In this document: one piece after another, positions 7,129-56,291 of the stretch
Position numbering within the stretch: position 1 is the stretch's first letter
Layout: each line of letters begins with the position of its first letter
Notes under the pieces: generated by a model
The model's input: the letters and a program-made list of their open reading frames with translations, nothing else
The model's database searches: none
Told to the model about the DNA's origin: nothing
Program-made: the position numbers and the translations under genes
Assembly: GCA_021780535.1 (NCBI GenBank)
Contig: JAJXYN010000012.1
Span: 69,688-133,687 of the forward strand
Source of the DNA: a bacterium
GTDB taxonomy: Bacteria > Patescibacteriota > Patescibacteriia > JAGPKW01
Length of the DNA: 64,000 nt
Reading direction: 5' to 3'

Positions 7129-7824
7129 ATGAGCAAACTAAAAGAATTTAGTAATTTTTTAAAAAATGTTGATTTGGACTCTTACAGAGTTAAATATAGA
7201 CCAATAAAAATAGTTGAAATGGATTTACCATCAGAGATACAAGCATTAAAATTAATATATAAAACTTATTGGGAAAAAAAGGATTTTATGTCTTTTGATG
7301 ACTTTTATAAAAAATATGAAGATGAATTGAACGAAAAATTAGAAAATTTTAGAAAAAAAATACAAATGTGTGAGCAATGTTTTTATCTTGGTTTACCAGC
7401 AAGAATATATAGAACATGGGCTAGTATTATAACTCAAATACATGCTGGTTATATTGCGGAATCTGTTTTTGGAGATGGTTCTGTTGATATGTCGGAAAAA
7501 TTAGATCATGCTGGAATAGATTTTTTAGTAAATTACAATGGATATATACTAAATTATCAAGTAAAGAAAGAAACTGAAAGTAGAGAAGTAAGAAAAGAAA
7601 AAAAACATAAAAATGAAAATAAAGGAGAATCTATAAATATATTTTATAAAGTACCTCAATCAAAAATATTTGAAGACCCAAAGACAAAAAAAGGAGAGTT
7701 TAGAAAACCATACTTAGATTTTATAAATAATAAAAACTTAGAAAGATATAATAATGGTTTTATTGTTTTTACAAAAGAACAATTTGAAAATAAAAAAAAT
7801 GAAATTGATAATAAAATAAATTAA
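7129..7824 (+). CDS. hypothetical protein (231 aa); candidate restriction endonuclease partner of the adjacent methyltransferase
   Basis: Convergent with the MTase gene, with 3' ends overlapping by 4 nt. Possible degenerate PD-(D/E)xK-like stretch GIDFLV...NYQVKK. No confident motif. Confidence 0.5.
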   Translation: MSKLKEFSNFLKNVDLDSYRVKYRPIKIVEMDLPSEIQALKLIYKTYWEKKDFMSFDDFYKKYEDELNEKLENFRKKIQMCEQCFYLGLPARIYRTWASIITQIHAGYIAESVFGDGSVDMSEKLDHAGIDFLVNYNGYILNYQVKKETESREVRKEKKHKNENKGESINIFYKVPQSKIFEDPKTKKGEFRKPYLDFINNKNLERYNNGFIVFTKEQFENKKNEIDNKIN

Positions 7825-9338
7825 ACTGACTTCAAAAATTCTTCTGCTATTTTTATATAATCAGGATTTATTTCAAATCCTATAAAACTACCTCCGAGTT
7901 TTTTTGTAGCAACACATTCAGAACCAGATCCAACAAAAGGAACTAAAACATTAAAATTACCAATTGGTTTGCAAGATTTTATTAACTTTTCAGATAATTC
8001 AAGCGGTTTTTGAGTCGGATGTTTTATAATATTATGGTCAAGATGTTTTTTTAGTAATTTAGGATTAAAACTTTTATTGCATGTTTTACAATAAAAAAAT
8101 CTTTCTTTTATTCCACTACCCCCAGCTAATGTTGATATTTTAATAACATCTCTTGGTAGGGCGCCGTTTTCATTTGCATTATATATAGTTGTTTTCCCTG
8201 TTTTGTTTAATCTTCCAATAGTGCCTGTTCTGGTTTTGCCAGCAGAATTTTTAAGAAAGCCTTCGGTATATGGCTCTCTTACGTCGTCTTTATTAAAAAT
8301 TTTATTATTTTTCCAACAACATATAATGGATTCATGACTTCTTTGCCAAAAATTTAAAGTTGGCATATTTTTATTTGTATAATGCCACACTAACCATCTT
8401 TTGTTTAAATCTATATTAATGAAAATATATGATAAAATTTCACTAAAACCATAAATAAATATTGTTCCTGTATCTTTTAAGACTCTTTTACATTCAGCCA
8501 TATATTTATTTGTCCAAGATATATAATCTTGAATATCCATGTTATCAAAATTGTTTCCAAAATTTTTTCCTATATTATAAGGAGGATCTATAATTACTAT
8601 ATCAAAAAAGTTATCTGGTAAATCTTTTATACCAATTAATAAGTCTTTCAAATATATTGAATTTAGTTTAATTATATTTTTTTTTGTCTTTTTCTTTTTA
8701 TCTTCTTTAATTTTTTTATTTTTTTCATCACTTAAATTTCTTATAATCTTAACAACAATGCCTCGCACTTCAACTTCTTTTCTAAAAAATGGTAACATTT
8801 GTTGATTTGCTGGTTGTAATCTAAATCCGTTTTTTTCTTTATATATTTTTTTTAAGGTAGCTTTATTTTCATCTATTATAGCAACAACGGTTTGTCCGTT
8901 ATCTGCATATGCTTGTTTTTTTATAACAACCACATCTCCATCAAATATTCCATCATCTATCATGCTATCACCACTAACTTTTAAAGAATAATAATCATTA
9001 TAGGAATTTTTTATTTCCTGTTTTGATAATATAATATCTCTTTCTTTATATTCAATTGCTTCTATTGGTAATCCAGCTGTTATAATCCCTATTAACGGTA
9101 TTTTTATTGTATCATTTCTTTTGTTTAAATTAATTAATTTAATAGATCTACTACTGTGGTTGTCTTTTTTGATAAATTTTTTATTAACCAATGATTCTAT
9201 ATGTTCGTGCACAGTTGACACGGAGGATAAATTAAAATTATTTTTTATTTCTTCTATTGTTGGCGATATATTATTTTTTAATATATAATTTTTTATAAAA
9301 TCATAAATTTCTTTTTGTCTTTTAGTTATTGTTTCCAT
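7821..9338 (-). CDS. LexA-like repressor (wHTH + S24 peptidase) fused to a beta-class DNA methyltransferase (N6-adenine/N4-cytosine)
   Basis: N-terminus KRQKEIYDFIKNY...SPTIEEI...STVHEHIESLVNKKFI is a LexA-type winged HTH. ITAGLPIEA matches the LexA Ala-Gly autocleavage site. VSGDSM plus TLKK form the S24 Ser/Lys dyad. The C-terminal half has DPPY motif IV (DIVIIDPPYNIG) before FxGxG motif I (VPFVGSGSE). Confidence 0.85.
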   Translation of the reverse strand: METITKRQKEIYDFIKNYILKNNISPTIEEIKNNFNLSSVSTVHEHIESLVNKKFIKKDNHSSRSIKLINLNKRNDTIKIPLIGIITAGLPIEAIEYKERDIILSKQEIKNSYNDYYSLKVSGDSMIDDGIFDGDVVVIKKQAYADNGQTVVAIIDENKATLKKIYKEKNGFRLQPANQQMLPFFRKEVEVRGIVVKIIRNLSDEKNKKIKEDKKKKTKKNIIKLNSIYLKDLLIGIKDLPDNFFDIVIIDPPYNIGKNFGNNFDNMDIQDYISWTNKYMAECKRVLKDTGTIFIYGFSEILSYIFINIDLNKRWLVWHYTNKNMPTLNFWQRSHESIICCWKNNKIFNKDDVREPYTEGFLKNSAGKTRTGTIGRLNKTGKTTIYNANENGALPRDVIKISTLAGGSGIKERFFYCKTCNKSFNPKLLKKHLDHNIIKHPTQKPLELSEKLIKSCKPIGNFNVLVPFVGSGSECVATKKLGGSFIGFEINPDYIKIAEEFLKSV

Positions 9339-15576: not shown

Positions 15577-15717
15577 ATGGCTACTACAAAAAAGGCTGCA
15601 ACAAAAAAAGTTGTCGCAAAGAAACCGGTTGCAACAAAAAAAGTTGTTGCAAAAAAAACAGTTGCAAAAAAGGCTCCTGTTAAAAAAGCAAAATCTACAA
15701 GACAAGCTAATGGTTAA
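15577..15717 (+). CDS. small Lys/Ala-rich basic protein (46 aa), histone H1/Hc1-like low-complexity
   Basis: MATTKKAATKKVVAKKPVATKKVVAKKTVAKKAPVKKAKSTRQANG. Followed immediately by a strong terminator. Below the ORF-track cutoff. Confidence 0.45.
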   Translation: MATTKKAATKKVVAKKPVATKKVVAKKTVAKKAPVKKAKSTRQANG

Positions 15718-25057: not shown

Positions 25058-25495
25058 ATGCAAAAACAAGAAATTAAAAAACAAGATAAGAAAGAGATAA
25101 AATTTCCGGAAGGAAAATATCTTTATGCTGTTGGTAGAAGAAAATCTGCTATAGCTCAAGTTAGACTTTATAGTGGAAGAGGAAAATCTATTGTTAATGG
25201 AGTTGAGGCTGAAAAATATTTTGCAACTCCACTTATTAATAAAATGATTGAACCTTTGAAGCAAGTTTCAAAAGAAGGTGAATATGATGTTTATGTTAAA
25301 GTTGTTGGTGGTGGAACAAATGGGCAATCAGAGGCTATTAGACACGGAGTTTCAAGAGCAATATCAGAAGGTGATAAAGCTATTAGAACTACATTGAAGA
25401 AGTTAGGATTTTTAACTAGGGATCCTAGAGTAGTTGAAAGAAAGAAACCAGGTTTGAAGAAAGCTAGAAGAGCTCCTCAATGGGCAAAGCGTTAA
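25058..25495 (+). CDS. rpsI: 30S ribosomal protein S9
   Basis: YAVGRRKSAIAQVRL..G.G...NG... and C-terminal ...RRAPQWAKR. Confidence 0.9.
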   Translation: MQKQEIKKQDKKEIKFPEGKYLYAVGRRKSAIAQVRLYSGRGKSIVNGVEAEKYFATPLINKMIEPLKQVSKEGEYDVYVKVVGGGTNGQSEAIRHGVSRAISEGDKAIRTTLKKLGFLTRDPRVVERKKPGLKKARRAPQWAKR

Positions 25496-25561
25496 GCTTT
25501 GGCACCACAATTGGGAATATATCCCAAATTTATGCATTTTTCTAAAATCATATTTAAAAGG

Positions 25562-25593
25562 GACGTTCATTATTGTTATGAACGTCTTTTTTG
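25562..25593 (+). terminator. intrinsic terminator after rpsI (GACGTTCAT-loop-ATGAACGTC + T6)
   Basis: Perfect 9-bp stem followed by a T run. Confidence 0.65.
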
Positions 25594-25595
25594 TT

Positions 25596-25666
25596 CCTCA
25601 TGTGATTTTATCGGTGATAGATTAGTTACGTCATTACTTTTCTATCCCCGATAAAATCACACGAGG
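25596..25666. repeat. long imperfect inverted repeat (26-bp arms, ~19-nt spacer) at the ribosomal operon / accessory element junction
   Basis: CCTCATGTGATTTTATCGGTGATAGA ... TCTATCCCCGATAAAATCACACGAGG matches 24/26. The spacer contains TTACGTCATTA, an 11-mer shared with the palindrome of the 92-bp repeat. Confidence 0.6.
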
Positions 25667-26933: not shown

Positions 26934-27815
26934 ATGTCTAAAACAAGTTTTATACAAGTACCAGAAGAAATAACAGAAAAATATTATAACAATTTGCAAT
27001 CAGCAGATAGATTTATAATACCAAGAATGAGATTTAAAAAGACAATATTATCGAGACAATTTATAAAAGGATTAAAACAAAAAACTTATTTAAAACAAAT
27101 ATCAGAAATATGGAAAGAATTCACAAAAGAGCAAAAACAAGCATGGAAAAATGTGGATTCTAGGAAATACCCTCATGGTTGGAGAATGTTTGTAACTGAT
27201 CAAAGTTTAAGAATAAAGCTAGGACTTACCGGAATAGTAACGCCTAATATTTATCATCAAGACTTGGTTGGTAAAATTCAAATACAATCGCCAGCACAAG
27301 AAATAAAATTAATTCAATTACATCCAAATAGTTATTGGATAAGTAAAAAAGTAAAAGGTTCAAAAAACATGTACGAGCCTGTGAAGATTGAAGAATATTT
27401 ATCTTTACCTTTAAAAATAGGGATAAGTTATAAATCAAATTTAGAAGTAACCGGCGAAGGAGCTTTTGCAAAATATTTCGTACGAATAAGGCATTTATAT
27501 CAAGGCAGAAATTTATTTACAGATGTAAGTATAGATATGCTTGCAAATACAGATTGGACATATAAAGAAGCTCAAAATACTTTCATGTTAGGTCAAGCAA
27601 TTTCTTATGATTTATATATTCATTTATACAAAGTAAAAGGAGAATTATTATTTGATAATTTAAAAGCTATTCATTCAGGAAGTAATTGGGCAAGAGATCA
27701 ATATTGTAAAAAGATAGAAAGAACATACACGAGAGGATTTTATCAAATACCAGAACATTGGTCGCCAGTGATAATCTCTCAAGGTGCTGATTATAAATCA
27801 ATTTATCCTATTTAA
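26934..27815 (+). CDS. hypothetical protein (293 aa)
   Basis: ORF tightly packed with its neighbours. Confidence 0.5.
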   Translation: MSKTSFIQVPEEITEKYYNNLQSADRFIIPRMRFKKTILSRQFIKGLKQKTYLKQISEIWKEFTKEQKQAWKNVDSRKYPHGWRMFVTDQSLRIKLGLTGIVTPNIYHQDLVGKIQIQSPAQEIKLIQLHPNSYWISKKVKGSKNMYEPVKIEEYLSLPLKIGISYKSNLEVTGEGAFAKYFVRIRHLYQGRNLFTDVSIDMLANTDWTYKEAQNTFMLGQAISYDLYIHLYKVKGELLFDNLKAIHSGSNWARDQYCKKIERTYTRGFYQIPEHWSPVIISQGADYKSIYPI

Positions 27816-27823
27816 TTAAAAAT

Positions 27824-28645
27824 ATGTCAGATTTTCCAAATACAATTTATAACCCAAGAGCAAAAGAAAATATTTATGGTGTTGTTTTTGATACAGCAAA
27901 TAAAAAGATGGCTTATGCGGAAGATTTTCAATTTTTAGATAATGAGGTTGTCGCTATTGAAAATGAGTTAGGAATAAATATAAAAGGCGTTTATCTAACT
28001 TTGAGAGAAAGAATAGAAAAAATGGAAATTGATATTTTTTTAGCAAATGATACTTTAGAGCCAAAAGCAAATAAATTTGAAATAGTAGATTTCTCAAATT
28101 TTACAGCAAGTAAAGTAGGTTCAGGTTCTAATATTAAAACGTGTTTTAGATTAAAACTTGCAACAGGAACTACAATAAACAGCAATGCAATAGCATATTT
28201 AAAATATTATAATTACGGGAATGCAGAATTTAGTTTTGATGAGAGTTTTCGTTTAATATTTTTTATAACTCAAATTTCAGGCGTTTTAAACGCTAATACT
28301 TTCTTAAAGGTAGATAATGACATAAATCCAGTAAATCCATCTAGCAAGGCCATAGGATTCAAATTAAATGGGTATAAATTGTTTGGCATTATTCACAATG
28401 GTACAAGTCTTCAAGAAATTGATTTGACTAAAAACCTTAATGCAAATGGAAAATTTAAACTAGAAATAAAATTTTTTATGTATAGTAAAATTGAATTTTA
28501 TGTAAATGATGTTAAGAGAGGCGAAAGTCAAAATATTCCTAATAGCTCAATGACTAATTCTAATATTTCAGTAAGTGTTGCAAATAATGCAGTTGCTAGT
28601 AATCAAGAAATTGCAGTGGGAAAAATATATTTAAGTGCTATATAA
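27824..28645 (+). CDS. hypothetical protein (273 aa), paralog of the next gene
   Basis: Shares the C-terminal block KIEFYVNDVKRG with 28651-29454 (IEFYVNDLLLA). Confidence 0.5.
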   Translation: MSDFPNTIYNPRAKENIYGVVFDTANKKMAYAEDFQFLDNEVVAIENELGINIKGVYLTLRERIEKMEIDIFLANDTLEPKANKFEIVDFSNFTASKVGSGSNIKTCFRLKLATGTTINSNAIAYLKYYNYGNAEFSFDESFRLIFFITQISGVLNANTFLKVDNDINPVNPSSKAIGFKLNGYKLFGIIHNGTSLQEIDLTKNLNANGKFKLEIKFFMYSKIEFYVNDVKRGESQNIPNSSMTNSNISVSVANNAVASNQEIAVGKIYLSAI

Positions 28646-28650
28646 AAAAT

Positions 28651-29454
28651 ATGAGTATAGAAAATTGGTGTAATTTACCAAAATCACAAATTGATAATGA
28701 AACAATAGAAAATGCTATAAAAAGATTAATACAAGCACATTGCAATGATGTTAATGCACATTTGGAAGATGGTCAGAGCTTACACTCTCATAAAGCAAGT
28801 GAGGTTATAGATCATTTAGCATTTTCAATAGTGTCAGACAAAATTCAACAAGGAGCTATAAAATTCTATCAAGTTGAAGATAATTTGAGGGTTAAATATA
28901 CTCCACCGCTTGAAAGTATGGATGGTTGGAATTCGTATGGTGTTAATTTAACTTTGGGTGGTTTTTCCATGTATCAAGCTAATTTGCAGAATGTTTTATA
29001 TTATGCGATGACTTCCGGAATAGTTCCATTGAATTGGGAAAAGAATTTTACTTTTTCATTTCTTTGTAAAATTGGAGATACTACAAACTGTGTTGCTTAT
29101 GCTCTTGCTGGTGATGTTATGTATGATTCAGAAGATCAAGGAATTGGTTTTAAATTCATGAATAATAAAGTTTATACAACGCATGTAAGTATGATTAATG
29201 ATGTTCTTACTGAATTTTTAACTGAAATAAATGTTCAAAATAAAAATAGTTTTAATTTATATAGAGTTGAATTTGTTGCAGGTCAAAAAATTGAATTTTA
29301 TGTAAATGATCTTTTACTTGCTACACATACAATAAATTTTCCAAGTCAGTATTATTGTCACGGAATTATATTTTGTTTCAATATAAAGAATGTAAAAGTT
29401 GGATATGGTGCAATGTATGAAGTTGGGCAATTATATTTTGCTCAAGATAAATAA
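28651..29454 (+). CDS. hypothetical protein (267 aa), paralog of the previous gene
   Basis: Shared IEFYVND block. Confidence 0.5.
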   Translation: MSIENWCNLPKSQIDNETIENAIKRLIQAHCNDVNAHLEDGQSLHSHKASEVIDHLAFSIVSDKIQQGAIKFYQVEDNLRVKYTPPLESMDGWNSYGVNLTLGGFSMYQANLQNVLYYAMTSGIVPLNWEKNFTFSFLCKIGDTTNCVAYALAGDVMYDSEDQGIGFKFMNNKVYTTHVSMINDVLTEFLTEINVQNKNSFNLYRVEFVAGQKIEFYVNDLLLATHTINFPSQYYCHGIIFCFNIKNVKVGYGAMYEVGQLYFAQDK

Positions 29455-29469
29455 TTAATAAAAATAATA

Positions 29470-29904
29470 ATGGAAATAGCTGAAATAATAACAGGGAAGG
29501 AATATCCTGAAAAAGTTATACCGATGATAGAAAATTGTAAAAAATCTATAGATATAGTTGTATTTGATTGGCGATGGTATCCGGATCAAATAGGGTCTAG
29601 TATTCAAAGATTTAATAATGCAATTGTTAAAAAAGGAAATACTGGAAAGCAAATAAGGGCAATAACAAATACAAAAGAAATTTCAAATGTTTTAATTCAA
29701 GGAAATATAAAAGCAAAAATATGGAAATCAAAAAGATTATTACATACAAAATTAATGATGATAGATGATGAAATTGCAATAATAGGAAGTCATAATTATA
29801 CATTAAATGCTTTTACAATAAATCAAGAAGTTTCTTTAATTATCAAGCAGAAACAAGTTTTAGAAAAATTAAAATTATATTTTGAAAATTTATGGCAGTT
29901 ATAA
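29470..29904 (+). CDS. phospholipase D-family (single HKD) Nuc-like endonuclease
   Basis: HTKLMMIDDEIAIIGSHN matches HxK(x4)D(x6)GSxN. The ~144-aa size is typical of dimeric Nuc-type PLD nucleases. Confidence 0.7.
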   Translation: MEIAEIITGKEYPEKVIPMIENCKKSIDIVVFDWRWYPDQIGSSIQRFNNAIVKKGNTGKQIRAITNTKEISNVLIQGNIKAKIWKSKRLLHTKLMMIDDEIAIIGSHNYTLNAFTINQEVSLIIKQKQVLEKLKLYFENLWQL

Positions 29905-30254
29905 AGCCAATACAGGAAGTTAAATCTTTAAATATTAAAAATAAATTAGGTACTTCATCTAATTTTGGTCAATTAACATTTGGTGAGACTAGATTTGGTC
30001 AATTTAAAAGTGAATATGGAATATATCAACAAAGAAGAAAAAGAAAAATTAAAATAACGATAAAAACTAAATTCTACTTACCAAAAAATCCAAAAACAGA
30101 AAGACAAATGATAAACCGATTAAAATTTAAAGAAGCAGTAAAAAAATGGCAAAATTTGACAAATAATGAGAAAGAAAAATATAATATAAGTACAAAATAT
30201 AAAAACTTATCAGGATATAATTTATTTATTAAACTAACTTTACTATCTAATTAA
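29892..30254 (+). CDS. hypothetical basic protein (120 aa)
   Basis: ORF overlapping the upstream gene by 13 nt. Confidence 0.4.
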   Translation: MAVIKPIQEVKSLNIKNKLGTSSNFGQLTFGETRFGQFKSEYGIYQQRRKRKIKITIKTKFYLPKNPKTERQMINRLKFKEAVKKWQNLTNNEKEKYNISTKYKNLSGYNLFIKLTLLSN

Positions 30255-30306
30255 AGAGTCGAGTAAAAGCAAAACATTTTATTAAATAGTTTAAAAATAA
30301 AAATAT

Positions 30307-30882
30307 ATGCCAAAAGTTTCAGGGCCATTAATGTCTATGGACGCTAGTGGTAAACTCGGAAATTCAATTGTGTTTGGTAAATGGAAAGGTCAACATACAG
30401 TTAGAAGTTATGTAAAACCAGCAAATCCAAAAAAACCAGAGCAAGGTGATGTTAGACTTATATTAGGTGGACTTGGTAGGGCTTGTGGTTTTGTAGCAAA
30501 AGATAAAGGTTATCATACAAAATTGTTAGCTTTAAATATTATTCCATCATCTCAAAGTAAACAATCTTTTTTAGTTAAATACTTCAAAGATTTATTTATA
30601 AATGGAAGTGGAACAGTAATGAATACTAATTACGATGATCTTTTACTAGAGTTACAAGCACATACTGCTTATGCTGATTTTAATACAAAAGCTGTATCAA
30701 TAGGAATATCAGATTTTAGTTTGAGTTATGCTAGTTTAGCACCATTTGAAAAAGCTCTTTGTCTTTATATATTAGCAAAAGGCGCAATTTCTTTGGGATT
30801 TACAGGAACACCTTACACAAAATCACTTGCAACTTGGACATCAACAGATATTCAATCTTTGATAGTAGATTTACAAGGTTAA
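30307..30882 (+). CDS. hypothetical protein (191 aa)
   Basis: ORF followed by a hairpin. Confidence 0.45.
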   Translation: MPKVSGPLMSMDASGKLGNSIVFGKWKGQHTVRSYVKPANPKKPEQGDVRLILGGLGRACGFVAKDKGYHTKLLALNIIPSSQSKQSFLVKYFKDLFINGSGTVMNTNYDDLLLELQAHTAYADFNTKAVSIGISDFSLSYASLAPFEKALCLYILAKGAISLGFTGTPYTKSLATWTSTDIQSLIVDLQG

Positions 30883-30916
30883 AAATAGGAGGTCTCATTT
30901 TATATGAGGCCTCTTA

Positions 30917-31990
30917 CGATTAAAAAAATTCAAAATACAATTTAAACCACCCACGATAAACTCAATAACAAACCTTTATCGGTTCAGAAATGCTATTTAA
31001 CTTTAACTTGATAAAGTCTTATACAAAGTATGAAGTACGCTCGCTAAATTTTTTATTCCGGAGTACCTCCATAAAAAAATAAGCTCGCTGATGAACGTTT
31101 ATCTATAATCAACGTTTTTTATCTAGTCCATCCCGCTCCTTTCTTATTAATGTTCGCAGTAGCTCACATAAATAAGAAATCCGCTAGCTAAAATTGCCCA
31201 TAATTTTTTGAGTACAAAAAAATAGGCAATTTCTCTGCTAATAAACTTCAGTTTGCAAAATAGACAAGTGCTAACCCGTAAAATTTTTATAAATCTTCGT
31301 AGTAACTACGATTAATAAAAAATTTTACTCACTGCATCACATTATTTTTATGTTCCGCTATCGCTACACATAAAAATAAGTGATTTATGAAAATTAAAAA
31401 GTAAGAAGTGCTAACCCGGAAAAAAATAATAAACTAAGGTTAAAAAATCCGGTGAACGTAACGGTGCTCGCATAACAAGACATTTTGCGACACCTCGCTA
31501 CGTGATTGCTAGTTTAAAAGCACATCTAAAGAACCGCTCGCCGCTCGCAAAATGCTATGTTATGCGACACCTATACAGACCATCACGTTTATTGCCCCGG
31601 ACTTTTTAGAAAATTAATCTATTTTTTTCCTAACTTCCGTAATCCTGCTATAACGTGCATCTCGTTTCGCCCTCTGCAAACTATAAACAGTCCATCACGT
31701 AAGTGCTTCGGGCGACCAAAAAACAACGATAAAAAGCGTAAATACAACGCAAAACAAGTCTTAAAAAACAAAACAAAATTTAAAATAAAAATAAAGCCTT
31801 CCGATTATGATAAGAAACGGAATGCCTCTAAGGATTTACTCATAGACTATTTTAGATAAAAAAAGCCTATAAACAATATTTTAAAAAAATAAAAACTTTA
31901 AAAATTAGCCATTTTTAATAAAACAAAAAAGCATAAAAGCTTTATATTTTTTTGCTATTTATAAAATACTTTTAGTGTTTTGGTTTTATA
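30917..31990. other. ~1-kb non-coding, GC-enriched, repeat-laden region (candidate origin/iteron array, att/regulatory region or structured RNA)
   Basis: No convincing ORF in any frame. Local GC is far above the window background (stretches near 50%). Several short direct repeats and a 15-bp palindrome are present; see the findings for details. Confidence 0.5.
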
Positions 31991-32015
31991 AAATAACAGC
32001 GTAATTACAATATAA

Positions 32016-32639
32016 ATGGAAATAAATAAAAGATATAAACAAAATATATTAATACCAGATCAATTTTTGACCCAGAACGAAGTTGGGTGCTTGTTGAAAT
32101 CCATAGATACAAGAACATTTTTAGGAAAAAGAGATAAAGTAATTCTGTTGTTATTTTTAAATACAGGACTTAGAAAAAATGAATTATTAAGTTTGAATAT
32201 AGAAAACTATAAAAAAGAAAATAATGATTATTGGTTAGAATTCAAAGCAAAAGGCGGACAAATACATATACAAAATATATCTCAAATAGAAGTTATAAAA
32301 GCCGTAGATTCATATTTAAAATTATGGAAAATAGGAAACAATGAATTAGAGCCTATATTTCAAAGTACTTATGATTGCAAAAATAAGAGTGGCAAAAGAT
32401 TAAGTAAACAGTCATTAGAATTTATGCTTAAAAAATATGGCAAACAAGCAGGAATTCAAAAAAAATTACATATTCATATGTTAAGACATACAGCAGGAAG
32501 TGAATTTTATAGATTAACTCAAAATTTACCTTTAACTCAAATGTTTTTAAGACATAAAAGTATAAATTCAACTCTTATCTATATGCACGCAGACAAAACA
32601 AAAGTAAAAGAAGTTCAAAAATTGATGTTCAAAAATTAG
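32016..32639 (+). CDS. tyrosine recombinase, catalytic-domain-only (207 aa; lacks N-terminal core-binding domain)
   Basis: R...HxxR...Y motifs: GLRKNELLSL, HMLRHTAGSEF and LRHKSINSTLIYMH (Tyr nucleophile). Confidence 0.7.
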   Translation: MEINKRYKQNILIPDQFLTQNEVGCLLKSIDTRTFLGKRDKVILLLFLNTGLRKNELLSLNIENYKKENNDYWLEFKAKGGQIHIQNISQIEVIKAVDSYLKLWKIGNNELEPIFQSTYDCKNKSGKRLSKQSLEFMLKKYGKQAGIQKKLHIHMLRHTAGSEFYRLTQNLPLTQMFLRHKSINSTLIYMHADKTKVKEVQKLMFKN

Positions 32640-33420: not shown

Positions 33421-33858
33421 CAATTATGTTTTATATTAGATAATTATTTATAATTAGGATTTCTTCATCATTTCTTCATTTTGTTTTGCTATAATATTTC
33501 TATTTATTTTTTAAAATATAATTTATGTTTTACTTTATGACTGATAAAAATGAAGTATTAGTTTTTATCAGTGCCGTTATTATATTTATTTTGTCTGTTA
33601 TTGTATATTATAAATTTTTTTATAATAGAAATAAGTAGTTTATAAATTTGTACACTGGTTGATTTTGTTATATTTAAAAGGTATATTATTTAAAATATTT
33701 CAATTAAATAAAAGAATTAATTTAAAATAGCTTGTAAAAAGCTTATTTTGAAAATATTTTTTGTGCACAACCACAAATGCGGTAAAGATGTTATAATTAA
33801 AATATATATTAAGATATAAATTATAACTATTTAATTTTTAAAGAAGTATGTTAAAAGT

Positions 33859-35982
33859 ATGTTAAAAGTTCAAATAGAAAAAAATAAAATATTTTCTCCT
33901 CTTAGAAAAAAATGGTTAATAAATACTCCAGAAGAAGAAGTCAGACAAGGTTATATTTGTAAGCTTGTTAATGATTATGGGTATGATTTAGAACAAATAG
34001 ATGAAGAGTTGCAGGTAAATAATAGTTTAAGAGGACAAGGTAAATCAAGAGCAGATATTGTCATTTGGAAATCAAAAGAAGAAAGGTTGAGCAAAAAAAA
34101 TGCTTTTATTGTTGTTGAATGTAAATCTGATAATGTTGTTATACATCCAGAAGATTATTATCAAGGTAATAACTATGCTTCTTGGGCAAGGGCTAAATTT
34201 TTTATTACTCACAATAATGCTGAAACAAAGTATTTTCAGATGCTTGAAGATAAATTACCTATTGATTTAAATGAAATAGCTAATATACCCAAAGCGGAAG
34301 AAGTAAATAATGAGATTAGATTGAAAGAGTTAGTTGATGAAACTAAAGTATTTACTAGAGATGAATTTTCAAAGTTACTTTATAAATGTCATACAATAAT
34401 TAGAAATAATGACAAACTTTCTCCTGAAGGTGCTTTTGATGAAATTAGTAAAATATTATTTATTAAGATAAGATATGAAAGACAAAAAGGGAAAAATATA
34501 TTTTCTCTTGCTCGTTTTAATGAATTAAAAAATAATTATGAAGAAACTGCTTCTAGAAACTCTAAGCCGTTTTATCAAAATTTATTTGAAAAAACAAAAG
34601 ATGATTTAGAGAAAGATGAACTTTTTGAAACGAATGAAGAGATAAAAATTCGTGAAAATAGCTTTGAACAAATAGTAAAAGAACTGGAGAAATATAATCT
34701 TTCAGATACAGGAGATGATGTTAAAGGAATAGCTTTTGAGCAATTTTTAGGCAAAACATTTAGAGGTGAGCTTGGGCAATTTTTTACTCCTAGAACAATA
34801 GTTGATTTCATGGTTGATATTTTAGACCCAAAAGAAAATGATTTAATTTGTGATCCTTGTTGTGGATCTGGTGGTTTTCTTATTAAAGCTTTTGACTATA
34901 TTAGAGCTAAAATTGAAGCTGATATTTTGAGACAAAAAGAAGAAATCAAAAATAAATATTTTGATGAAAAGTATCAAAAATTAGATGATAAAGAAAAGCA
35001 AAAGATTGATGATACTGTAGAACGTGAATTTAAGAAATTGAATCAAGAACTAGATAATAAAATAGAAAAATCTAGATTACATAATTTATCTCATAATTGT
35101 ATATATGGTTCTGACGCTAATCCAAGAATGGCAAGAACTAGTAAAATGAATATGATTATGCATGGTGATGGTCATGGTGGAGTTCATCATAATGATGGAT
35201 TATTGGATGTTAATGGTATCTTTGAAAACCGTTTTGATATAATTCTTACAAACCCTCCTTTTGGTTCAAGAGTTGGCAAAGATCACAAAATAACAGATAA
35301 TGATAATAAATATAAAGGCAAAGAATCTTATATTAAAGAAAAATTTGGTGATGCAGGTTTAAATGCAATATCTAATTTAGAGAATAACATTGGTAAAAAT
35401 CTTATAGAAACTTATGAAACTGGAAGTTTTTCAACTCTTACAGAAGTTTTGTTTATGGAACGTTATCTAAGATTGCTTAAGCAAGGTGGGAAAATGGCCG
35501 TTGTTTTGCCAGAGGGTTTTTTAAATAATCCAAATTTACAAAAAGTAAGAGAATATTTTGAAGGTAGAGCTAAGATTGAGCTTATCGTTTCTATCCCTCA
35601 GGATGTATTTATAGCTAGCGGGGCTACGGTAAAGCCCAGTTTGGTGTTTTTACAAAAATTTACTCAAGTAGATAGTAAAAAATATGAAAAAATAAAAGAG
35701 GAAGTAAATAAAAATATTATAGAAAAATATCAAATTCAAATAGATGAATTAGAAAATGAATTAGAAAAACTAAAAGGAGATAAAAGAAAACTAAAGAAAA
35801 AAGAATTGGATAATTTAGAAATTCTTATTGAAACTGAGATAAAACAGGAGATTAAAAATAAATTTGATTATCAAATACCAATAGTAGAAGTTGAAAAAGC
35901 TGGCATTACAACAACAGGAGAAAAATGTGAAAATGAACTTTTAGATGTAGTAAAAGAGTATAGAAAATATAAATCTAAATAA
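33859..35982 (+). CDS. restriction-modification enzyme subunit: N-terminal HsdR_N-like PD-(D/E)xK nuclease domain fused to a gamma-class N6-adenine methyltransferase (BcgI A-subunit-like type IIB; alternatively an unusual type I HsdM)
   Basis: N-terminus RGQGKSRADIVIW...IVVECKSDN gives a D...ExK motif. MTase motif I DPCCGSGGFL and motif IV ILTNPPFGS. The adjacent HsdS-like gene and the absence of a helicase-type HsdR in the window fit a BcgI-like A/B system. Confidence 0.7.
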   Translation: MLKVQIEKNKIFSPLRKKWLINTPEEEVRQGYICKLVNDYGYDLEQIDEELQVNNSLRGQGKSRADIVIWKSKEERLSKKNAFIVVECKSDNVVIHPEDYYQGNNYASWARAKFFITHNNAETKYFQMLEDKLPIDLNEIANIPKAEEVNNEIRLKELVDETKVFTRDEFSKLLYKCHTIIRNNDKLSPEGAFDEISKILFIKIRYERQKGKNIFSLARFNELKNNYEETASRNSKPFYQNLFEKTKDDLEKDELFETNEEIKIRENSFEQIVKELEKYNLSDTGDDVKGIAFEQFLGKTFRGELGQFFTPRTIVDFMVDILDPKENDLICDPCCGSGGFLIKAFDYIRAKIEADILRQKEEIKNKYFDEKYQKLDDKEKQKIDDTVEREFKKLNQELDNKIEKSRLHNLSHNCIYGSDANPRMARTSKMNMIMHGDGHGGVHHNDGLLDVNGIFENRFDIILTNPPFGSRVGKDHKITDNDNKYKGKESYIKEKFGDAGLNAISNLENNIGKNLIETYETGSFSTLTEVLFMERYLRLLKQGGKMAVVLPEGFLNNPNLQKVREYFEGRAKIELIVSIPQDVFIASGATVKPSLVFLQKFTQVDSKKYEKIKEEVNKNIIEKYQIQIDELENELEKLKGDKRKLKKKELDNLEILIETEIKQEIKNKFDYQIPIVEVEKAGITTTGEKCENELLDVVKEYRKYKSK

Positions 35983-39010: not shown

Positions 39011-40897
39011 ATGTTTTTAACAAAATTAATAATAATAAATAACAAAAGTTGCAAAAGAGTAATTTTAGAACCATCTAAGGATGAGCCAGAAATTTTGATT
39101 GGTATAAACGATTGCGGAAAGTCTACAATTTTAAAGTCTTTAGATTTATTTTTTGATGAGAAAAAAAATTTTAGTTTTATTAAAGAAGATCAACAAAAAA
39201 ATGATCTTTCAAACTCTCCTTTAAACAACTTAGAAATCAATGAATTATTAGAAGAAAATAAGTATCCAAGTTTTTTTGAGTATTCTGGTGATGTTATTAT
39301 CGTTATTTGTCAATTTGAGGTAGAAGAAAATGATTTAAAAAATAATGAATTTCAAGAAAGTTCAAAAAATGCTCATTTAAAATGGAGTATTATTGATAAT
39401 AAAATAAATTTAATGCGTGTATTTCATAATTCTGAACAAGGATCACAGAATTTGAGCGGGTATTATTTACTAACTAATGATTATAAAGATAATGAAAGTT
39501 ATTTAGAGTTATGGAATAAGCCAGCTAAAGAATTAACAGAAATTAAGAAAAAATTTAATATTGATAATAAAGATGTAGATAATGAAAATAATGTTGGTCG
39601 TTTAAAGAATATTGAAAATATAGAGGCAATTTATAAAAAAATGCCTACCTTATGTATGAAATGGTCTAAATATAGTGATTTTTCAAAAGATAAAACATTC
39701 TACCCAAATTTTAAATATTTGGATTGGAATTTTTCTTTAAAGGAATTAGAAGATATAGCTACTGAGGCAATGAATAAGGTGACAGAACCACTACTTCAAG
39801 AGATAAGACAGTTGGTTTCTGAAAAACAATCCGAAGCTATAATCGGTGTTAATAATGAATTTGCTAGTATGATGGGAGATTTGAAAGATGATCTACCTAA
39901 GTGTGTAAAAAAAATTAGCTCATCAGTATTTTTTGATGTAAGTCAAAAGGTTACTGATATAAAACTAGAAAAAGAAAATGTTGATGGAGAAATACATATA
40001 GATAATCAAGGAGAGGGCATAAAGAGGCAGATTTGGTTTGCGTTGTTAAAGTGGCGTAGTAAATTAATATCTAATGAAAATAAATCAAATAAATATGTTT
40101 GGTGTTTTGATGAACCAGAAACACATTTATATCCTGCCGCACAAAGGCAACTCTTTGAGACATTAAAAGAAATGTGTAGTAATGAATTTCAAATATTATT
40201 GAGCACACACTCAACAATTTTTATAGATAGAACAAAAATTAGTGATGTTAAGCAAGTAACTTTAGAAGGTGGTTACTCAACTATTTATAAAAGCGATAAC
40301 TCAACAGATCTTTTTAATTGTTTGGGTATAAAAAATAGTGATTTTTTGTTTTTTGATAAGTTTTTAGCCGTAGAAGGCTTTACTGAGTATGGTTTAATTC
40401 CATATTTGTATCAGTTGAAATATTCTAGGTCATTATTAAATGATGGAATACAAATCATCAACTTAAAAGGGGAAGACCAATATTTAAATAATAAAGGTAT
40501 CTTAGAAAATATTTTATCTGATTTTCAGAAGACTAGTGATAAAATTTTTTATTTATTTGATAATGATACAGGAATGTCTGGCGACAATATTTTTACTTCT
40601 GGCACTTATGATATAGAAGATTCTATTGAAAATAATATTTGGATTGAATTTGTAAAAGATAATTGTGATATAGATATAACGGAAGATATTTTGAATAATG
40701 ATATAAGAAAAAAATTAGAAAACAAGAATGGTAAAAAATTTTATAAGTTACTTGGAGATTATGTAGTAAAAAATTTAAAAGATGAAAAATATTTGCCATC
40801 TAAAGCTAGATCGGGTTATTTGTTAACTAAGTATTTTAAAGACATTAAAGATATTCCTAAAAAAATTGATAACCTTTTTAACGCATTAAGTTCTTAA
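39011..40897 (+). CDS. OLD-family ATP-dependent endonuclease (N-terminal ABC/AAA_15-type ATPase + C-terminal TOPRIM)
   Basis: Walker A GINDCGKST. Walker B / D-loop region VWCFDEPETHLYP...ILLSTHS. TOPRIM motifs LAVEGFTE and FYLFDNDTG (DxD). Confidence 0.65.
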   Translation: MFLTKLIIINNKSCKRVILEPSKDEPEILIGINDCGKSTILKSLDLFFDEKKNFSFIKEDQQKNDLSNSPLNNLEINELLEENKYPSFFEYSGDVIIVICQFEVEENDLKNNEFQESSKNAHLKWSIIDNKINLMRVFHNSEQGSQNLSGYYLLTNDYKDNESYLELWNKPAKELTEIKKKFNIDNKDVDNENNVGRLKNIENIEAIYKKMPTLCMKWSKYSDFSKDKTFYPNFKYLDWNFSLKELEDIATEAMNKVTEPLLQEIRQLVSEKQSEAIIGVNNEFASMMGDLKDDLPKCVKKISSSVFFDVSQKVTDIKLEKENVDGEIHIDNQGEGIKRQIWFALLKWRSKLISNENKSNKYVWCFDEPETHLYPAAQRQLFETLKEMCSNEFQILLSTHSTIFIDRTKISDVKQVTLEGGYSTIYKSDNSTDLFNCLGIKNSDFLFFDKFLAVEGFTEYGLIPYLYQLKYSRSLLNDGIQIINLKGEDQYLNNKGILENILSDFQKTSDKIFYLFDNDTGMSGDNIFTSGTYDIEDSIENNIWIEFVKDNCDIDITEDILNNDIRKKLENKNGKKFYKLLGDYVVKNLKDEKYLPSKARSGYLLTKYFKDIKDIPKKIDNLFNALSS

Positions 40898-53622: not shown

Positions 53623-53697
53623 GGCCTCATCGTCTAGTGGTTAGGACATATCCTTCTCAAGGATGGAACCGGAGTTCGATTCTCCGTGGGGCTACCA
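53623..53697 (+). tRNA. tRNA-Glu (anticodon CTC), encoded 3' CCA
   Basis: Cloverleaf folds by hand. Acceptor GGCCTCA/TGGGGCT (two G-U pairs). D-arm GTCT-AGTGGTTA-GGAC. Anticodon stem TATCC/GGATG with loop TTCTCAA. T-arm CGGAG-TTCGATT-CTCCG. The 5' half TCGTCTAGTGGTTAGGAC resembles bacterial tRNA-Glu. Confidence 0.8.
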
Positions 53698-54071: not shown

Positions 54072-56291
54072 ATGATTGTAGATCCTAAAGAACTTACAAT
54101 TATTGGCGAAACCAATTTCCGTAATATGAGAAAAAAGTTTGGCATAAAAGTTGACGATAGACGTCGTCATGTTTATGTTATTGGAAAATCTGGTTCTGGT
54201 AAATCTGCTCTTCTAGAAAATATGATCATGCAAGATATTATGAACGGCAACGGATGTTGTGTCATGGATCCTCATGGAGAATTAGCAGAATCTATTGTTA
54301 GATGTATTCCTCCAGAAAGACAGAAAGATGTTATTTATTTTAATCCATCTGATGTAGAATATCCTATTGCTTTTAATATTTTAGAAGGTACTGGGGATGA
54401 TTCTAGTAAAAATTTAGTAACTTCTGGTCTTATTGGTATATTTAAAAAAATATGGGCTGATTCTTGGGGACCTAGACTTGAATATGTTTTGAGAAATACT
54501 ATTCTATCTCTTATGTATGCTGAAGGGAGTACTCTTCTTGGAATTAATAGAATGCTTACTGATAAAAAATACAGAAACTCTGTTCTTGAAAATGTTCACG
54601 ATCCTATTTTGAAAGCTTTTTGGACTCAAGAATACGAAAATTATCCTGCAAAAGAATTGCCAATGATTATAAGCCCTATACAAAATAAAGTTGGACAGTT
54701 TTTGTCTAACCCTATTGTTCGTAATATTCTTGGTCAACCGAATAGTACTATAGATTTGAGAGAAATAATGGATAAGAAAAAAATATTTTTAGTAAATCTT
54801 TCAAAGGGTAGAATTGGTGAAGATAATTCATCTCTTATTGGTTCTATGATTGTTACAAAATTATATTTGGCAGCAATGAGCCGTGTTAATATTTCAGAGA
54901 GTGAAAGAAGTGATTTTTATCTTTATGTAGATGAATTTCAAAATTTTGCTACGGATTCTTTCGCAGATATTTTATCAGAAGCTAGAAAATATAGACTTGC
55001 ACTTATTATTGCTCATCAATATGTATTACAACTTCCAGAAAAAGTTTCTGATGCTATTTTTGGTAATGGAGGTACGTTAATAACTTTTCGTCTTGGACCA
55101 CAAGATGCTGAAATTTTTGAAAAAGAATTTGGGCCAGATTTTTTATTGGAAGATTTGGTAAATATTCCAAAATATAATATTGTTCTAAAACTTCTTATAG
55201 ATGGAGTTGCGTCTAGATCTTTTTCAGCAGCTACGCTTCCCCCTATAACAAAAACTATTGGATATGAAGATAGGTCAGCTTTTATTATTGCTGAATCAAG
55301 AAAAAAATACTCAAGAAGTAAAGATCTTGTTGAAAATCAGATTAGAGAATGGAGTATGAGTGAAGATGAGAGGCGTTCTGTAGAAAAAAAGAAAAAAGAA
55401 GAAGATTTTAAAAAAGAAAATTCTATTAAAGGTATTGTTGAGGAAAAAACTGGAGAAAAAATGTATTATACTAATTGTTGGGTTTGTGGTATGAAAATAG
55501 AAGTTCCATTCGCCCCAGATGATAAAAGACCTATATATTGTATTGATGATTTAAAAAAAGTTAGAGAAAAAATAATTCAAGAACCTATATTTAATAGATT
55601 TGTTGAAAATAAAGAAAAAAAAATAGAGAAAAATAAAAAAGAAGAAAAAAGAGAACAAAAACCAAGACAAGAAAATAATATTAATAATAAACAACAAGAT
55701 AGAAATAGAGAAAATAAAAAAGAAAGCATAAAGAGAGATGATAATAGAAATAAAGATGGGAGAGATAATAAACAACAAAACAACAACCAACAAAGACAAG
55801 ATATAAAAAAACCTGTTGAGCAAGTTGTGAGACCTATAATAAATAATAATATTGGAAAAATTATTCCTATTGAAGAAGAAAAATTAATTAAACCAATAAT
55901 TAAAGAAATAATTATTGAACCTGAAAAAGAAATAAAAAAAATAGAAGAAGTTAAACCAGTTATTAAAATAGAACAACCAAAAGAAGAAATAAAAGAGTTG
56001 GACTTTAAATCTATGCTTGGAGATATTATGAAGGAAACTGGAATAGAGGAAAAACAAAAAAGAGAAAAAATGGAAAAAGAAAAAAATGAAAAAGGGATAG
56101 AAAAAGAAAATGAAAAATTAATTGAACCAATACAAGATATAAAAGAGATTGAAAATGTTATTATTAAACCAGGAATGAGTTTGAATCAATTAAAAGAGAA
56201 GAGTTTTGATGAGATTAAACAAGAATTAAGTCAAAATAATAAGAATAATCAGTCTAATATTTTAAAGGCTGGAGAAGTTATTAAATTATAG
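54072..56291 (+). CDS. FtsK/HerA/TraG-superfamily P-loop ATPase (DUF87/T4CP-like, no TM segments) with Cys cluster and long K/E/N/Q-rich low-complexity C-terminal tail
   Basis: Walker A YVIGKSGSGKSALLENMI...CVMDPHGE, Walker B LYVDEFQNFAT, and a LALIIAHQYVLQL Q-motif-like segment. CWVCG...YC cluster, then ~240 aa of low complexity. Confidence 0.55.
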   Translation: MIVDPKELTIIGETNFRNMRKKFGIKVDDRRRHVYVIGKSGSGKSALLENMIMQDIMNGNGCCVMDPHGELAESIVRCIPPERQKDVIYFNPSDVEYPIAFNILEGTGDDSSKNLVTSGLIGIFKKIWADSWGPRLEYVLRNTILSLMYAEGSTLLGINRMLTDKKYRNSVLENVHDPILKAFWTQEYENYPAKELPMIISPIQNKVGQFLSNPIVRNILGQPNSTIDLREIMDKKKIFLVNLSKGRIGEDNSSLIGSMIVTKLYLAAMSRVNISESERSDFYLYVDEFQNFATDSFADILSEARKYRLALIIAHQYVLQLPEKVSDAIFGNGGTLITFRLGPQDAEIFEKEFGPDFLLEDLVNIPKYNIVLKLLIDGVASRSFSAATLPPITKTIGYEDRSAFIIAESRKKYSRSKDLVENQIREWSMSEDERRSVEKKKKEEDFKKENSIKGIVEEKTGEKMYYTNCWVCGMKIEVPFAPDDKRPIYCIDDLKKVREKIIQEPIFNRFVENKEKKIEKNKKEEKREQKPRQENNINNKQQDRNRENKKESIKRDDNRNKDGRDNKQQNNNQQRQDIKKPVEQVVRPIINNNIGKIIPIEEEKLIKPIIKEIIIEPEKEIKKIEEVKPVIKIEQPKEEIKELDFKSMLGDIMKETGIEEKQKREKMEKEKNEKGIEKENEKLIEPIQDIKEIENVIIKPGMSLNQLKEKSFDEIKQELSQNNKNNQSNILKAGEVIKL

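Follow-up and report, generated by a model that had tools for sequence, protein, structure and literature searches.

What is the role of a kilobase that holds no credible gene and lies directly beside the gene for a very small tyrosine recombinase? The segment in question, positions 30917-31990, is part of a 64,000-nucleotide (nt) stretch of contig JAJXYN010000012.1 (assembly GCA_021780535.1; hereafter the window) from a bacterium of the Patescibacteriota, and it is flanked by a 191-amino acid (aa) open reading frame (ORF) that ends at 30882 and by the 207-aa recombinase ORF that starts at 32016. The explanation favored here, to which we assign a probability of approximately 0.5, is that this non-coding block is a cis-acting DNA region of a small Patescibacteria mobile element, which holds the site of the adjacent recombinase and is organized like the folded attachment site attP(+) of the phage CTXφ.

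The block is real and non-random. A preliminary description of this DNA, made from the sequence alone, had recognized no credible ORF in the kilobase, which is borne out by the mechanical ORF list, where only two ORFs of at least 50 aa lie between 30882 and 32016 (31557-31859, forward strand, 100 aa; 31619-31771, reverse strand, 50 aa), and by an independent gene call on L001, an identical Logan contig, which placed zero genes inside the block. The 100-aa ORF, whose composition had been called implausible, is indeed of low complexity and rich in Lys, Asn, and Phe, and it gave no match in Pfam at E ≤ 1 or by tblastn against phages. Pfam and tblastn were also negative for the decayed gene of higher guanine-plus-cytosine (GC) content that had been considered, and blastn of 30900-32000 against phages and plasmids found no similarity. 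A chimeric assembly is unlikely because the region is identical in L001, an independent assembly with 0 mismatches to the window over 10.6 kb.

With regard to composition, the GC content per 100 nt reaches 0.50 at 31450-31549, 0.46 at 31500-31599, and 0.43 at 31650-31749. The peak of approximately 50% was thus described correctly, whereas the background is lower than the 28% given at that time (range 0.19-0.33, mean approximately 0.25 over the 64 kb). The rise is limited to approximately 31400-31750, and the remainder of the kilobase is AT-rich like the genome, including a very AT-rich stretch at 31850-32000 (GC 0.14-0.17). The GC-rich part, 300 nt long, is made up of stems and conserved motifs rather than imported DNA, and "compositionally foreign" was therefore too strong a term. 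The GC skew is negative in the block (-0.2 to -0.4) versus positive in all flanking coding DNA. Every repeat and palindrome listed in the preliminary description was found: AAGTGCTAACCCG at 31266 and 31406 (the second copy, 31406-31418 on the forward strand, by direct-repeat search), TGCGACACCT at 31486 and 31563, ACAGACCATCACGT at 31575 with the related ACAGTCCATCACGT at 31687, a 25-nt motif at 31153 and 31352, the palindrome TCGTAGTAACTACGA at 31297-31311, and AACGTT palindromes at 31094 and 31111. The direct repeats exist as such, but most of them are better read as pieces of inverted repeats or hairpins.

The GC-rich part contains H1, a 154-nt inverted repeat at 31448-31601, which forms a forked hairpin in DNA and RNA folding predictions and whose outer stem (TCCGG-TGAACGT / ACGTTTA..CCGGA) encloses two core-type sites. 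Site 1 (31463-31495) reads GGTGC-TCGCATAA-CAAGACA-TTTTGCGA-CACCT, with a dyad symmetry of 7/8, and site 2 (31540-31572), recognized by pattern comparison with site 1, reads GCCGC-TCGCAAAA-TGCTATG-TTATGCGA-CACCT. Each site comprises two 8-nt inverted arms, TCGCAWAA and TTWTGCGA, around a 7-nt spacer, and the general dyad pattern of H1-type sites is TCGYAWAA-N6/7-TTWTRCGA. By analogy with dif, lox, and FRT, this arm-spacer-arm symmetry is the core-site architecture of tyrosine recombinases. The sites are oppositely oriented, with 77 bp from one start to the next, and the reverse complement of site 1 departs from site 2 only at the 3 nt in the middle of the spacer. Their 19-nt cores match on opposite strands with 3 mismatches; shuffled sequences yielded 0.04 such matches per window, and two such matches occurred in 0 of 100 shuffles. 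No other site of this type is present in the 64 kb, and the pair is located 450-550 bp upstream of the recombinase gene. H1 folds on either strand, with z-scores as DNA of -4.1 and -4.5. The first copy of ACAGACCATCACGT (31575-31588, forward strand; direct-repeat search) follows immediately 3′ of site 2. In addition, the outer arm GGTGCTCGCATAA is similar to the first 11 nt of Escherichia coli dif, GGTGCGCATAA (PMC3025954).

Homologous hairpins or paired sites were found in the related loci L002, L008, L011, and L015/L238, upstream of recombinases that are 35-45% identical to that of the window. Arm sequences differ among the loci, those of the relatives including TCGTACAA, TCACAAAA, TCGGATAG, and TCGTATAA. 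In an alignment of five site pairs, with the apical loops replaced by GAAA, all 79 of 79 arm cells are paired, and 6 of 16 pairs have changed on both sides, with no one-sided changes and no G·U. The 7-nt spacers are 51% paired, and their middle 3-4 positions 20-25%. Partner arms across the hairpin show 0/80 differences, and the two arms within one site 7/40. Since the arms are exactly complementary across the hairpin yet unlike within a site, selection appears to act on base pairing and not merely on the recognition of four arms by one protein. Among the functions suggested in the preliminary description, an attP or regulatory region beside the recombinase is the best supported, given the two dyad-symmetric core-type sites, the compensatory changes, and the recurrence beside the same recombinase family elsewhere.

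The adjacent gene (32016-32639, forward strand) encodes an Xer-like tyrosine recombinase of 207 aa that consists of the catalytic domain only. The match to PF00589 (E = 4.8e-28) covers residues 17-194, so that approximately 15 residues precede the catalytic domain, and the catalytic residues R-K-H-R-H-Y are intact (R53, K79, H154, R157, H180, and Y189, invariant in family alignments). Tyrosine recombinases normally clamp their DNA site with an N-terminal domain, and full-length Xer proteins, of approximately 290-360 aa, include this core-binding domain. Unlike such full-length relatives, family members gave no match to the N-terminal core-binding domain (Phage_int_SAM; PF02899 and PF13495), and the recombinase of the window aligns only to the C-terminal domains of XerD (111-287), XerA (138-309), and XerH (175-356). 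Its scores against the NCBIfam Xer models are all far below cut-off (XerA 104 of 220 bits, XerD 87 of 330, XerC 83 of 335, and XerS 72 of 267), as is that against the integron-integrase model TIGR02249 (32 bits versus 265). Models named "tyrosine-type DNA invertase" give 56 and 55 bits versus cut-offs of 221 and 222, less than the Xer models, with an alignment that runs end to end (positions 11-180 of 200). It was also observed that the profile of the recombinase family matches residues 116-290 of a 401-aa protein in the PDB (entry 9i5v, chain 14; E = 2.8e-11) that bears the label "ribosome-associated translation inhibitor RaiA", which is either an odd annotation or a fusion.

A second inverted repeat, H2 (31665-31717; TTTCGCCC-TC-(35 nt)-C-GGGCGA; 6-8 bp), is located between H1 and the recombinase gene, and the second copy of the ACAGACCATCACGT-like repeat, ACAGTCCATCACGT at 31687-31700, lies inside its spacer. 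H2 occurs in eight loci (the window, L002, L003, L004, L005, L008, L011, and L021), in every case lying 230-720 nt before the recombinase gene and in its orientation, with a spacer of 36-38 nt in all loci but one. In a seven-sequence alignment, its 6-bp helix is paired in 42/42 cells, with compensatory changes in 3 of 6 pairs and no one-sided changes. A scan of viral contigs with the H2 pattern gave 19 matches, all in high-GC phages, which is approximately the chance level by a rough estimate, and none was beside a short recombinase.

Locus-specific 8-9-mers are shared, as direct copies, by the H2 spacer and the linker between H1 and H2, and in the window and L008 also, as an inverted copy, by the H1 apical loop. 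In the window, the two copies of CCATCACGT (31580-31588 and 31692-31700) are complementary to TACGTGAT in the H1 apical loop (31499-31506; inverted-repeat search), while L008 contains TTGATCTAG and ACTTCTTG (356-364, 433-440, and 470-483) and L002 contains TCCTGACAT (474-482 and 544-552). The chance probability of each shared match is approximately 0.02-0.04. A conserved long-range pairing between the H1 loop and the H2 spacer was considered and rejected, as this complementarity is present in the window and L008 and absent from L002, L011, and L238.

A single-sequence search with the recombinase recovered three relatives only (66, 56, and 45% identity), and a profile search recovered approximately 90 further proteins of 196-216 aa, all with the catalytic domain only, one of them annotated as Candidatus (Ca.) Pacebacteria. 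IMG/VR yielded no true family members, only generic integrases of at most 31% identity, and the GTDB genomes yielded one family member, which belongs to Ca. Paceibacterota and differs in its upstream context. Upstream of the recombinase, the closer relatives have 1-1.6 kb of DNA with few or no ORFs, full of long inverted repeats. The primary sequence of these blocks turns over fast: short motifs alone are common to them, and the non-coding regions cannot be aligned even between relatives whose recombinase genes share 74% DNA identity. On the recombinase-sense strand, C exceeds G in 16 of 19 loci, and A exceeds T in 16 of 19. Contigs of the relatives often break in the block, 0.7-2.3 kb upstream of the recombinase; because identical contigs from different samples stop variously within one repeat array, these ends are considered to be assembly breaks. 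The telomere of a linear replicon, with a protelomerase, which the contig ends had suggested, was rejected for this reason and because H1 lacks a perfect dyad centre. Literature searches revealed no report of an Xer-like recombinase, either RNA-associated or domain-less, that has a site of this kind; among the Xer-related recombinases, a "Cand" subgroup, which comes from candidate phyla, has been mentioned (PMC8138268).

The genomic context indicates that the block belongs to a larger unit. A ribosomal-protein operon (S13-S11-S4-RpoA-L17-L13-S9) ends at 25495, a restriction-modification system begins at 33859, and between them are found, in order, a DnaD-like gene, six genes, the non-coding block, the recombinase, an M15 peptidase, and a small membrane ORF. 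The S11 and L17 proteins of the window fall, at 90% identity, into clusters with proteins named as Patescibacteria (CPR), in keeping with a host from this group. The six genes (26934-30882) encode one PLD nuclease and five proteins without known function, and the earlier label "structural-like" for the upstream genes is unsupported. They are syntenic, at 32-53% identity, with genes beside related recombinases in L244, L006, and L243, and because of this synteny the block is regarded as part of a small, conserved mobile element. In a family of Patescibacteria mobile elements, the six-gene block travels together with the recombinase and the non-coding block; the present member of this family is likely virus- or plasmid-like and occupies roughly 25.5-33.5 kb of the window in a Patescibacteria chromosome. 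Relative to the gene block, the module formed by the non-coding block, recombinase, and lysin has opposite orientations in the window and in L244/L006. Among the window proteins, none was recognized as Rep or Zot-like, and a PDB search with a 293-aa neighbour returned nothing useful. A search for attL and attR at the edges of the island gave just one AT-rich 12-nt repeat, which is unconvincing. This 12-mer, ATATTTAAAAGG, flanks the element (25550-25572 and 33670-33692) as a candidate attL/attR core, and it may have arisen by chance because it is AT-rich in an AT-rich genome.

Taken as a recombination site, H1 would be the place where the short recombinase binds and cuts, probably in a folded form, either hairpin or cruciform. 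In single-stranded or cruciform H1, the arms would anneal into one duplex core site, with the bases at the spacer centre unpaired. Accessory or replication-related functions would probably fall to H2, to the variable repeats of 8-9 nt, and to the upstream AT-stem hairpins. Judging from the sequence features, the resulting reaction might be integration or excision elsewhere, dimer resolution, or inversion of the module of non-coding block, recombinase, and lysin.

Several observations weigh against this proposal. Element genes flank H1 on both sides, and H1 is therefore not the attP of this insertion; neither a second or partner copy of the H1-type site nor a dif-like partner site is present in the 64 kb. 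The A+C-rich sense strand (16 of 19 loci) is needless for double-stranded protein sites and fits a single-stranded form, RNA or DNA, and the DnaD-like protein suggests double-stranded replication. Moreover, paired TCG-type sites were recovered in 5-7 of approximately 20 family loci, the other members having other long hairpins, and each covariation count, for H1 and for H2, rests on 5-8 sequences. A generic "paired dyad" detector, which is threshold-dependent, recovers the window, L002, and L008 versus one control locus in 1 Mb.

Hairpins with compensatory changes would also be produced by noncoding RNA, one large and structured or several small, that is transcribed in the recombinase sense and acts on or with the recombinase, for example by standing in for the missing DNA-binding domain as scaffold or guide, or in the form of a long regulatory leader. 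Unpaired motifs (GTGCTAAC, CGGAGTACCTYC, and AAACGGAATGC) are conserved as well, in 16 of 19 loci the sense-strand linkers are, like unpaired RNA, rich in A/C and poor in G, 8-9-nt variable segments are common to the H2 spacer, H1 loop, and linker, folding z-scores range from -2.3 to -7.3, and the upstream, co-oriented position recalls the bridge RNAs of IS110. However, such an RNA is rather unlikely, and the large structured RNA of the preliminary description found no support. In a scan with Rfam 15, whose families include GOLLD, ROOL, HEARO, OLE, RNase P, tmRNA, and group I/II introns, a tRNA at 53623 is the sole feature above the gathering threshold, the best E-values in 30700-32200 are approximately 1-10, and 20 related loci are empty, in agreement with the earlier failure to match the block by eye to RNase P, tmRNA, or group I/II introns. 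The helices of H1 and H2 are strictly Watson-Crick, with G·U in 0/121 cells; in the helices of 18 loci, G·T (26) and A·C (17) make up 1.3% versus 0.9% of approximately 1930 pairs, a wobble count that does not favor one strand over the other, and both strands fold equally well. Promoter-like sites are absent upstream of the hairpins on either strand, consensus promoters being found only between H2 and the gene, facing the recombinase. The dyad symmetry of the H1 arms is that of a protein-bound DNA core site and needless for an RNA helix, tandem iterons occur in this region of the relatives, and the recombinase is of the tyrosine type, not the DEDD/Tnp protein of an IS110-type bridge RNA system. 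Complementarity reaching beyond the H1 sites in L002, the conserved unpaired motifs, and the A/C-rich linkers favor a single-stranded form, RNA or DNA. It is distinctly improbable that the domain-less recombinase obtains its DNA recognition from a folded single-stranded RNA or DNA encoded by the block, with the variable 8-9-nt segments as programmable specificity determinants. If true, this would represent a nucleic-acid-guided tyrosine recombinase, a counterpart of the IS110 bridge RNAs in another recombinase superfamily.

The iterons belong to the evidence for a replication origin, or an origin plus a partition site, in which hairpins and repeats would bind an initiator and unwind and the proximity of the recombinase would be incidental. 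Classical iteron arrays occupy the equivalent region in L238 (1-360; a 33-nt unit, GAAACGGTTTAAAA..GAGGGG, repeated approximately 10 times), L010 (1-125; 22 nt, 5 times), and L009 (430-700; approximately 100 nt, 3 times), and exact DnaA boxes (TTATCCACA) are enriched in related loci, with 9 in 23 kb of non-coding DNA versus approximately 0.2 expected (L002 890; L010 512 and 545; L015 1323, equal to L238 1417; L235 1522; L241 1374 and 1542; L019 633). The element also encodes a DnaD-like helicase loader, and three AT-stem hairpins that are related to each other, together with very AT-rich stretches, are present in the window. An origin is unlikely nonetheless, and the earlier suggestion of an origin or partition site has no direct support in the window, which lacks a tandem repeat scoring ≥50, a DnaA box (≤1 mismatch) in 30917-31990, and a turn in the cumulative skew. 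Unlike H1 and H2, the iterons of the relatives are unconserved in sequence and position, their DnaA boxes are mostly within the recombinase promoter, at -114 to -181 from the start, and H1 has the dyad-site architecture of a recombination site. An origin in the AT-rich left half (30917-31400) could be compatible with a recombinase site in H1. An invertible switch of the FimB/FimE type, in which the recombinase flips a segment bounded by inverted sites and toggles neighbouring genes, is suggested by the length of the recombinase, its end-to-end alignment with the invertase models, the inverted H1 sites, and the inversion of the recombinase module in L244/L006. This is very improbable, as the invertase models score far below their cut-off and below the Xer models, the sites, 45-77 bp apart, are judged too close for synapse, and no promoter lies between them. 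Unlike spacer centres would prevent productive recombination between the two sites, and among the assemblies examined, identical collinear contigs from different samples contain no inversion variants. Fast sequence turnover and the frequent contig breaks could, finally, reflect a non-functional region, such as a decayed gene, a graveyard of miniature inverted repeats, or an assembly artefact. This is hardly credible and largely refuted by the conservation data, since motif, structure, and position are kept across recombinases only 35-45% identical; there is no protein similarity, the sequence is identical in an independent assembly, and the contig breaks are explained by tandem repeats.

Apart from H1 and H2, the block contains a number of further features. 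At its left edge, directly 3′ of the stop codon of the upstream gene, is a terminator-like hairpin, AGGAGGTCTCAT-tttat-ATGAGGCCTCTT (30886-30914, forward strand), which was read from the sequence and by palindrome search, has one G·T on the forward strand, and was missed by the consensus terminator scan because it has no T run. Inverted-repeat searches revealed five hairpins to its right. Three of these have AT stems and loops related to each other, namely a (31043-31084; 14-bp stem, GC-rich loop TCCGGAGTACCTCC), b (31140-31179; 14-bp stem, loop TCGCAGTAGCTC), which is half of the 25-nt motif, and e (31342-31379; 12-bp stem, loop TCCGCTATCGCTAC); the loop motif CGGAGTACCTYC of hairpin a is also found in L002 (668-680; shared 10-mer). 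The left AT-rich half with these three hairpins may be replication-related. Hairpin c (31191-31232) is formed by AAATTGCCCATAATTTT and AAAAAAATAGGCAATTT, and hairpin d (31267-31333) consists of AGTG, an internal loop CTAACCC, GTAAAATTTTT ... AAAAATTTTAC, T, and CACT, with the palindrome TCGTAGTAACTACGA at its tip. By-eye comparison indicated that L002 55-140 is laid out in the same manner (GGTG, CTAAC, stem...stem, TA, CACC). Downstream of H2, sequence comparison identified an inverted repeat TTCCG-N14-CGGAA (31799-31825) containing AAACGGAATGC, a motif common to the window, L003 (194-204), and L238 (approximately 1313). It was also observed that hairpin loops are rich in a period-5 C/T/G motif, GCTNC, for example CTACGCTCCGCTTTCGCC, GCTTCGCTCCGCTCTCGCC, and CCGCTCGCCGCTCGC, in apical loops of L005 (43-85), L006 (2340-2362), L008 (45-62 and 186-205), and the window (31494-31548); we know of no binding factor for loops of this type.

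With regard to expression of the recombinase, two tandem promoters face the gene in the relatives, TTGCgg-N17-TATAAT-..AACACACG and TTGACA-N17-TATTAT-GTGTTTATAG, and a conserved leader of approximately 100 nt, AAACTTTGCTAAAATAAG, lies between them (L005 505-650; L008 600-720; L011 905-1040; L013 975-1100; L238 1330-1450). It might represent a small RNA or a leader subject to regulation, and the window shows no clear counterpart. A tentative recombinase promoter, GTGTT..TAAAAT-AACAGCG (31975-32001, forward strand), was proposed with low confidence from its by-eye likeness to P1 of the relatives (TTGCgg-N17-TATAAT-..AACACAC); the consensus promoter scan made no call there, and promoter and terminator scans of the window region were uninformative. 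In a more distant subfamily of 196-198 aa, a conserved 13-bp inverted repeat, TTGTTACCCAAAT..(approximately 57 nt)..ATTTGGGTAACAA, lies approximately 560 nt upstream of the recombinase and is followed by a small ribbon-helix-helix-like ORF (MKRVNYHLT...AEIIRRAVDEYL; L032 2439-2521, L038, L059, L061, L077, and L079).

Some other features of the window were also noted. At the probable left edge of the element, approximately 100 nt past the rpsI stop codon and 25 nt past its terminator-like hairpin, is a long imperfect hairpin (25596-25666; CCTCATGTGATTTTATCGGTGATAGATTAGT / ACTTTTCTATCCCCGATAAAATCACACGAGG) with 31-nt arms, 87% complementary, and a 9-nt loop, which may be an att-related or origin element. 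Within the six-gene block, the 273-aa (27824-28645) and 267-aa (28651-29454) proteins share a C-terminal KIEFYVND motif and a 27-nt stretch of 96% identical DNA; both are conserved in L244 and L006, and they are probably paralogues and possibly capsid-like. A 505-aa ORF (7821-9338, reverse strand) joins a full LexA repressor (residues 1-202, above the TIGR00498 cut-off) to an adenine-specific DNA methyltransferase domain in an unusual fusion. The window also holds further mobile or defence genes outside the element, namely a 628-aa protein (39011-40897) weakly similar to a methylation-associated defence ATPase and a TraD/coupling-protein-like ATPase (54072-56291) with a CxxC-x17-CxxC domain. 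Tandem dyads at 15597-15651, TGCAACAA-aaaaag-TTGTCGCA and TGCAACAA-aaaaag-TTGTTGCA, resemble a pair of operators or terminators upstream of a 636-aa ORF at 15797.

The general significance is that a Patescibacteria family of recombinases of approximately 200 aa with the catalytic domain only, comprising at least approximately 90 sequence clusters, is consistently paired with a long hairpin-rich non-coding region, which in the clade of the window holds a dif-like site in two copies that can anneal to each other. Should the folded form be the substrate, single-strand recombination in the style of CTXφ and integrons would extend to a self-encoded minimal enzyme, which might provide a route of movement for mobile elements in a phylum where such elements are little characterized, and engineering would gain a very small recombinase whose site is defined. 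If the block is an ordinary attP or resolution site plus an origin, a conserved mobile-element family is annotated and the contig breaks are explained.

Several known systems can be compared with this locus. Tn4430, whose internal resolution site consists of a core site plus accessory motifs, similarly places four recombinase-binding motifs (putative in H1) within approximately 100 bp beside the recombinase gene of the element; on the other hand, its accessory motifs are direct repeats with no hairpin implied, and TnpI has an N-terminal domain. The FimB/FimE invertases are also of approximately 200 aa, essentially a catalytic domain, and act on inverted repeats near their own gene, but their sequence similarity to the window recombinase is weak, and the closely spaced sites, unlike spacers, and absence of inversion variants set H1 apart. 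In integrons, imperfect inverted repeats are used by the tyrosine recombinase IntI as folded single strands, as is predicted for the window, attC hairpins are of similar size (57-141 nt), and a bulged base is conserved, in this case the C in GGTG(C)TCGC of the window and L002. The recombinase is nevertheless far from the IntI model, there is no RYYYAAC/GTTRRRY pair (GTGCTAAC is unpaired and without a GTTAG partner), and no cassette ORFs lie between the hairpins.

The single-recombinase Xer systems (XerS/difSL of streptococci, XerH/difH, and archaeal XerA/dif) are closer, as the catalytic domain is nearest to XerA, XerD, XerC, and XerS, and the H1 sites are dyad-symmetric with a 6-7-nt spacer. 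The difSL site is just upstream of xerS, comparable to H1 beside the recombinase gene, and GGTGCTCGCATAA resembles an arm of E. coli dif that we take to be the XerC-binding arm. Unlike in these systems, the recombinase has no N-terminal core-binding domain and is below every equivalog cut-off, the site is doubled in inverted orientation, and the module resides in a mobile element and not at the chromosome terminus. The closest parallel is CTXφ, in which attP1 and attP2, two dif-like sites in opposite orientation approximately 90 bp apart, fold in the plus strand into a 150-nt forked hairpin whose stem is the substrate of host XerCD (PMC3089051). H1 likewise has two opposed dif-like sites tens of bp apart and a forked hairpin of nearly the same length, with paired arms and a partly unpaired centre. 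Unlike CTXφ, which encodes no recombinase and uses host XerC and XerD, the element has its own short recombinase 450 bp from H1, and within each site the two arms resemble each other, suggesting a single protein species in place of separate XerC and XerD arms. CTXφ is a filamentous single-stranded DNA phage, whereas no sign of a single-stranded DNA stage and no Zot-like or rolling-circle Rep gene was found in the window element.

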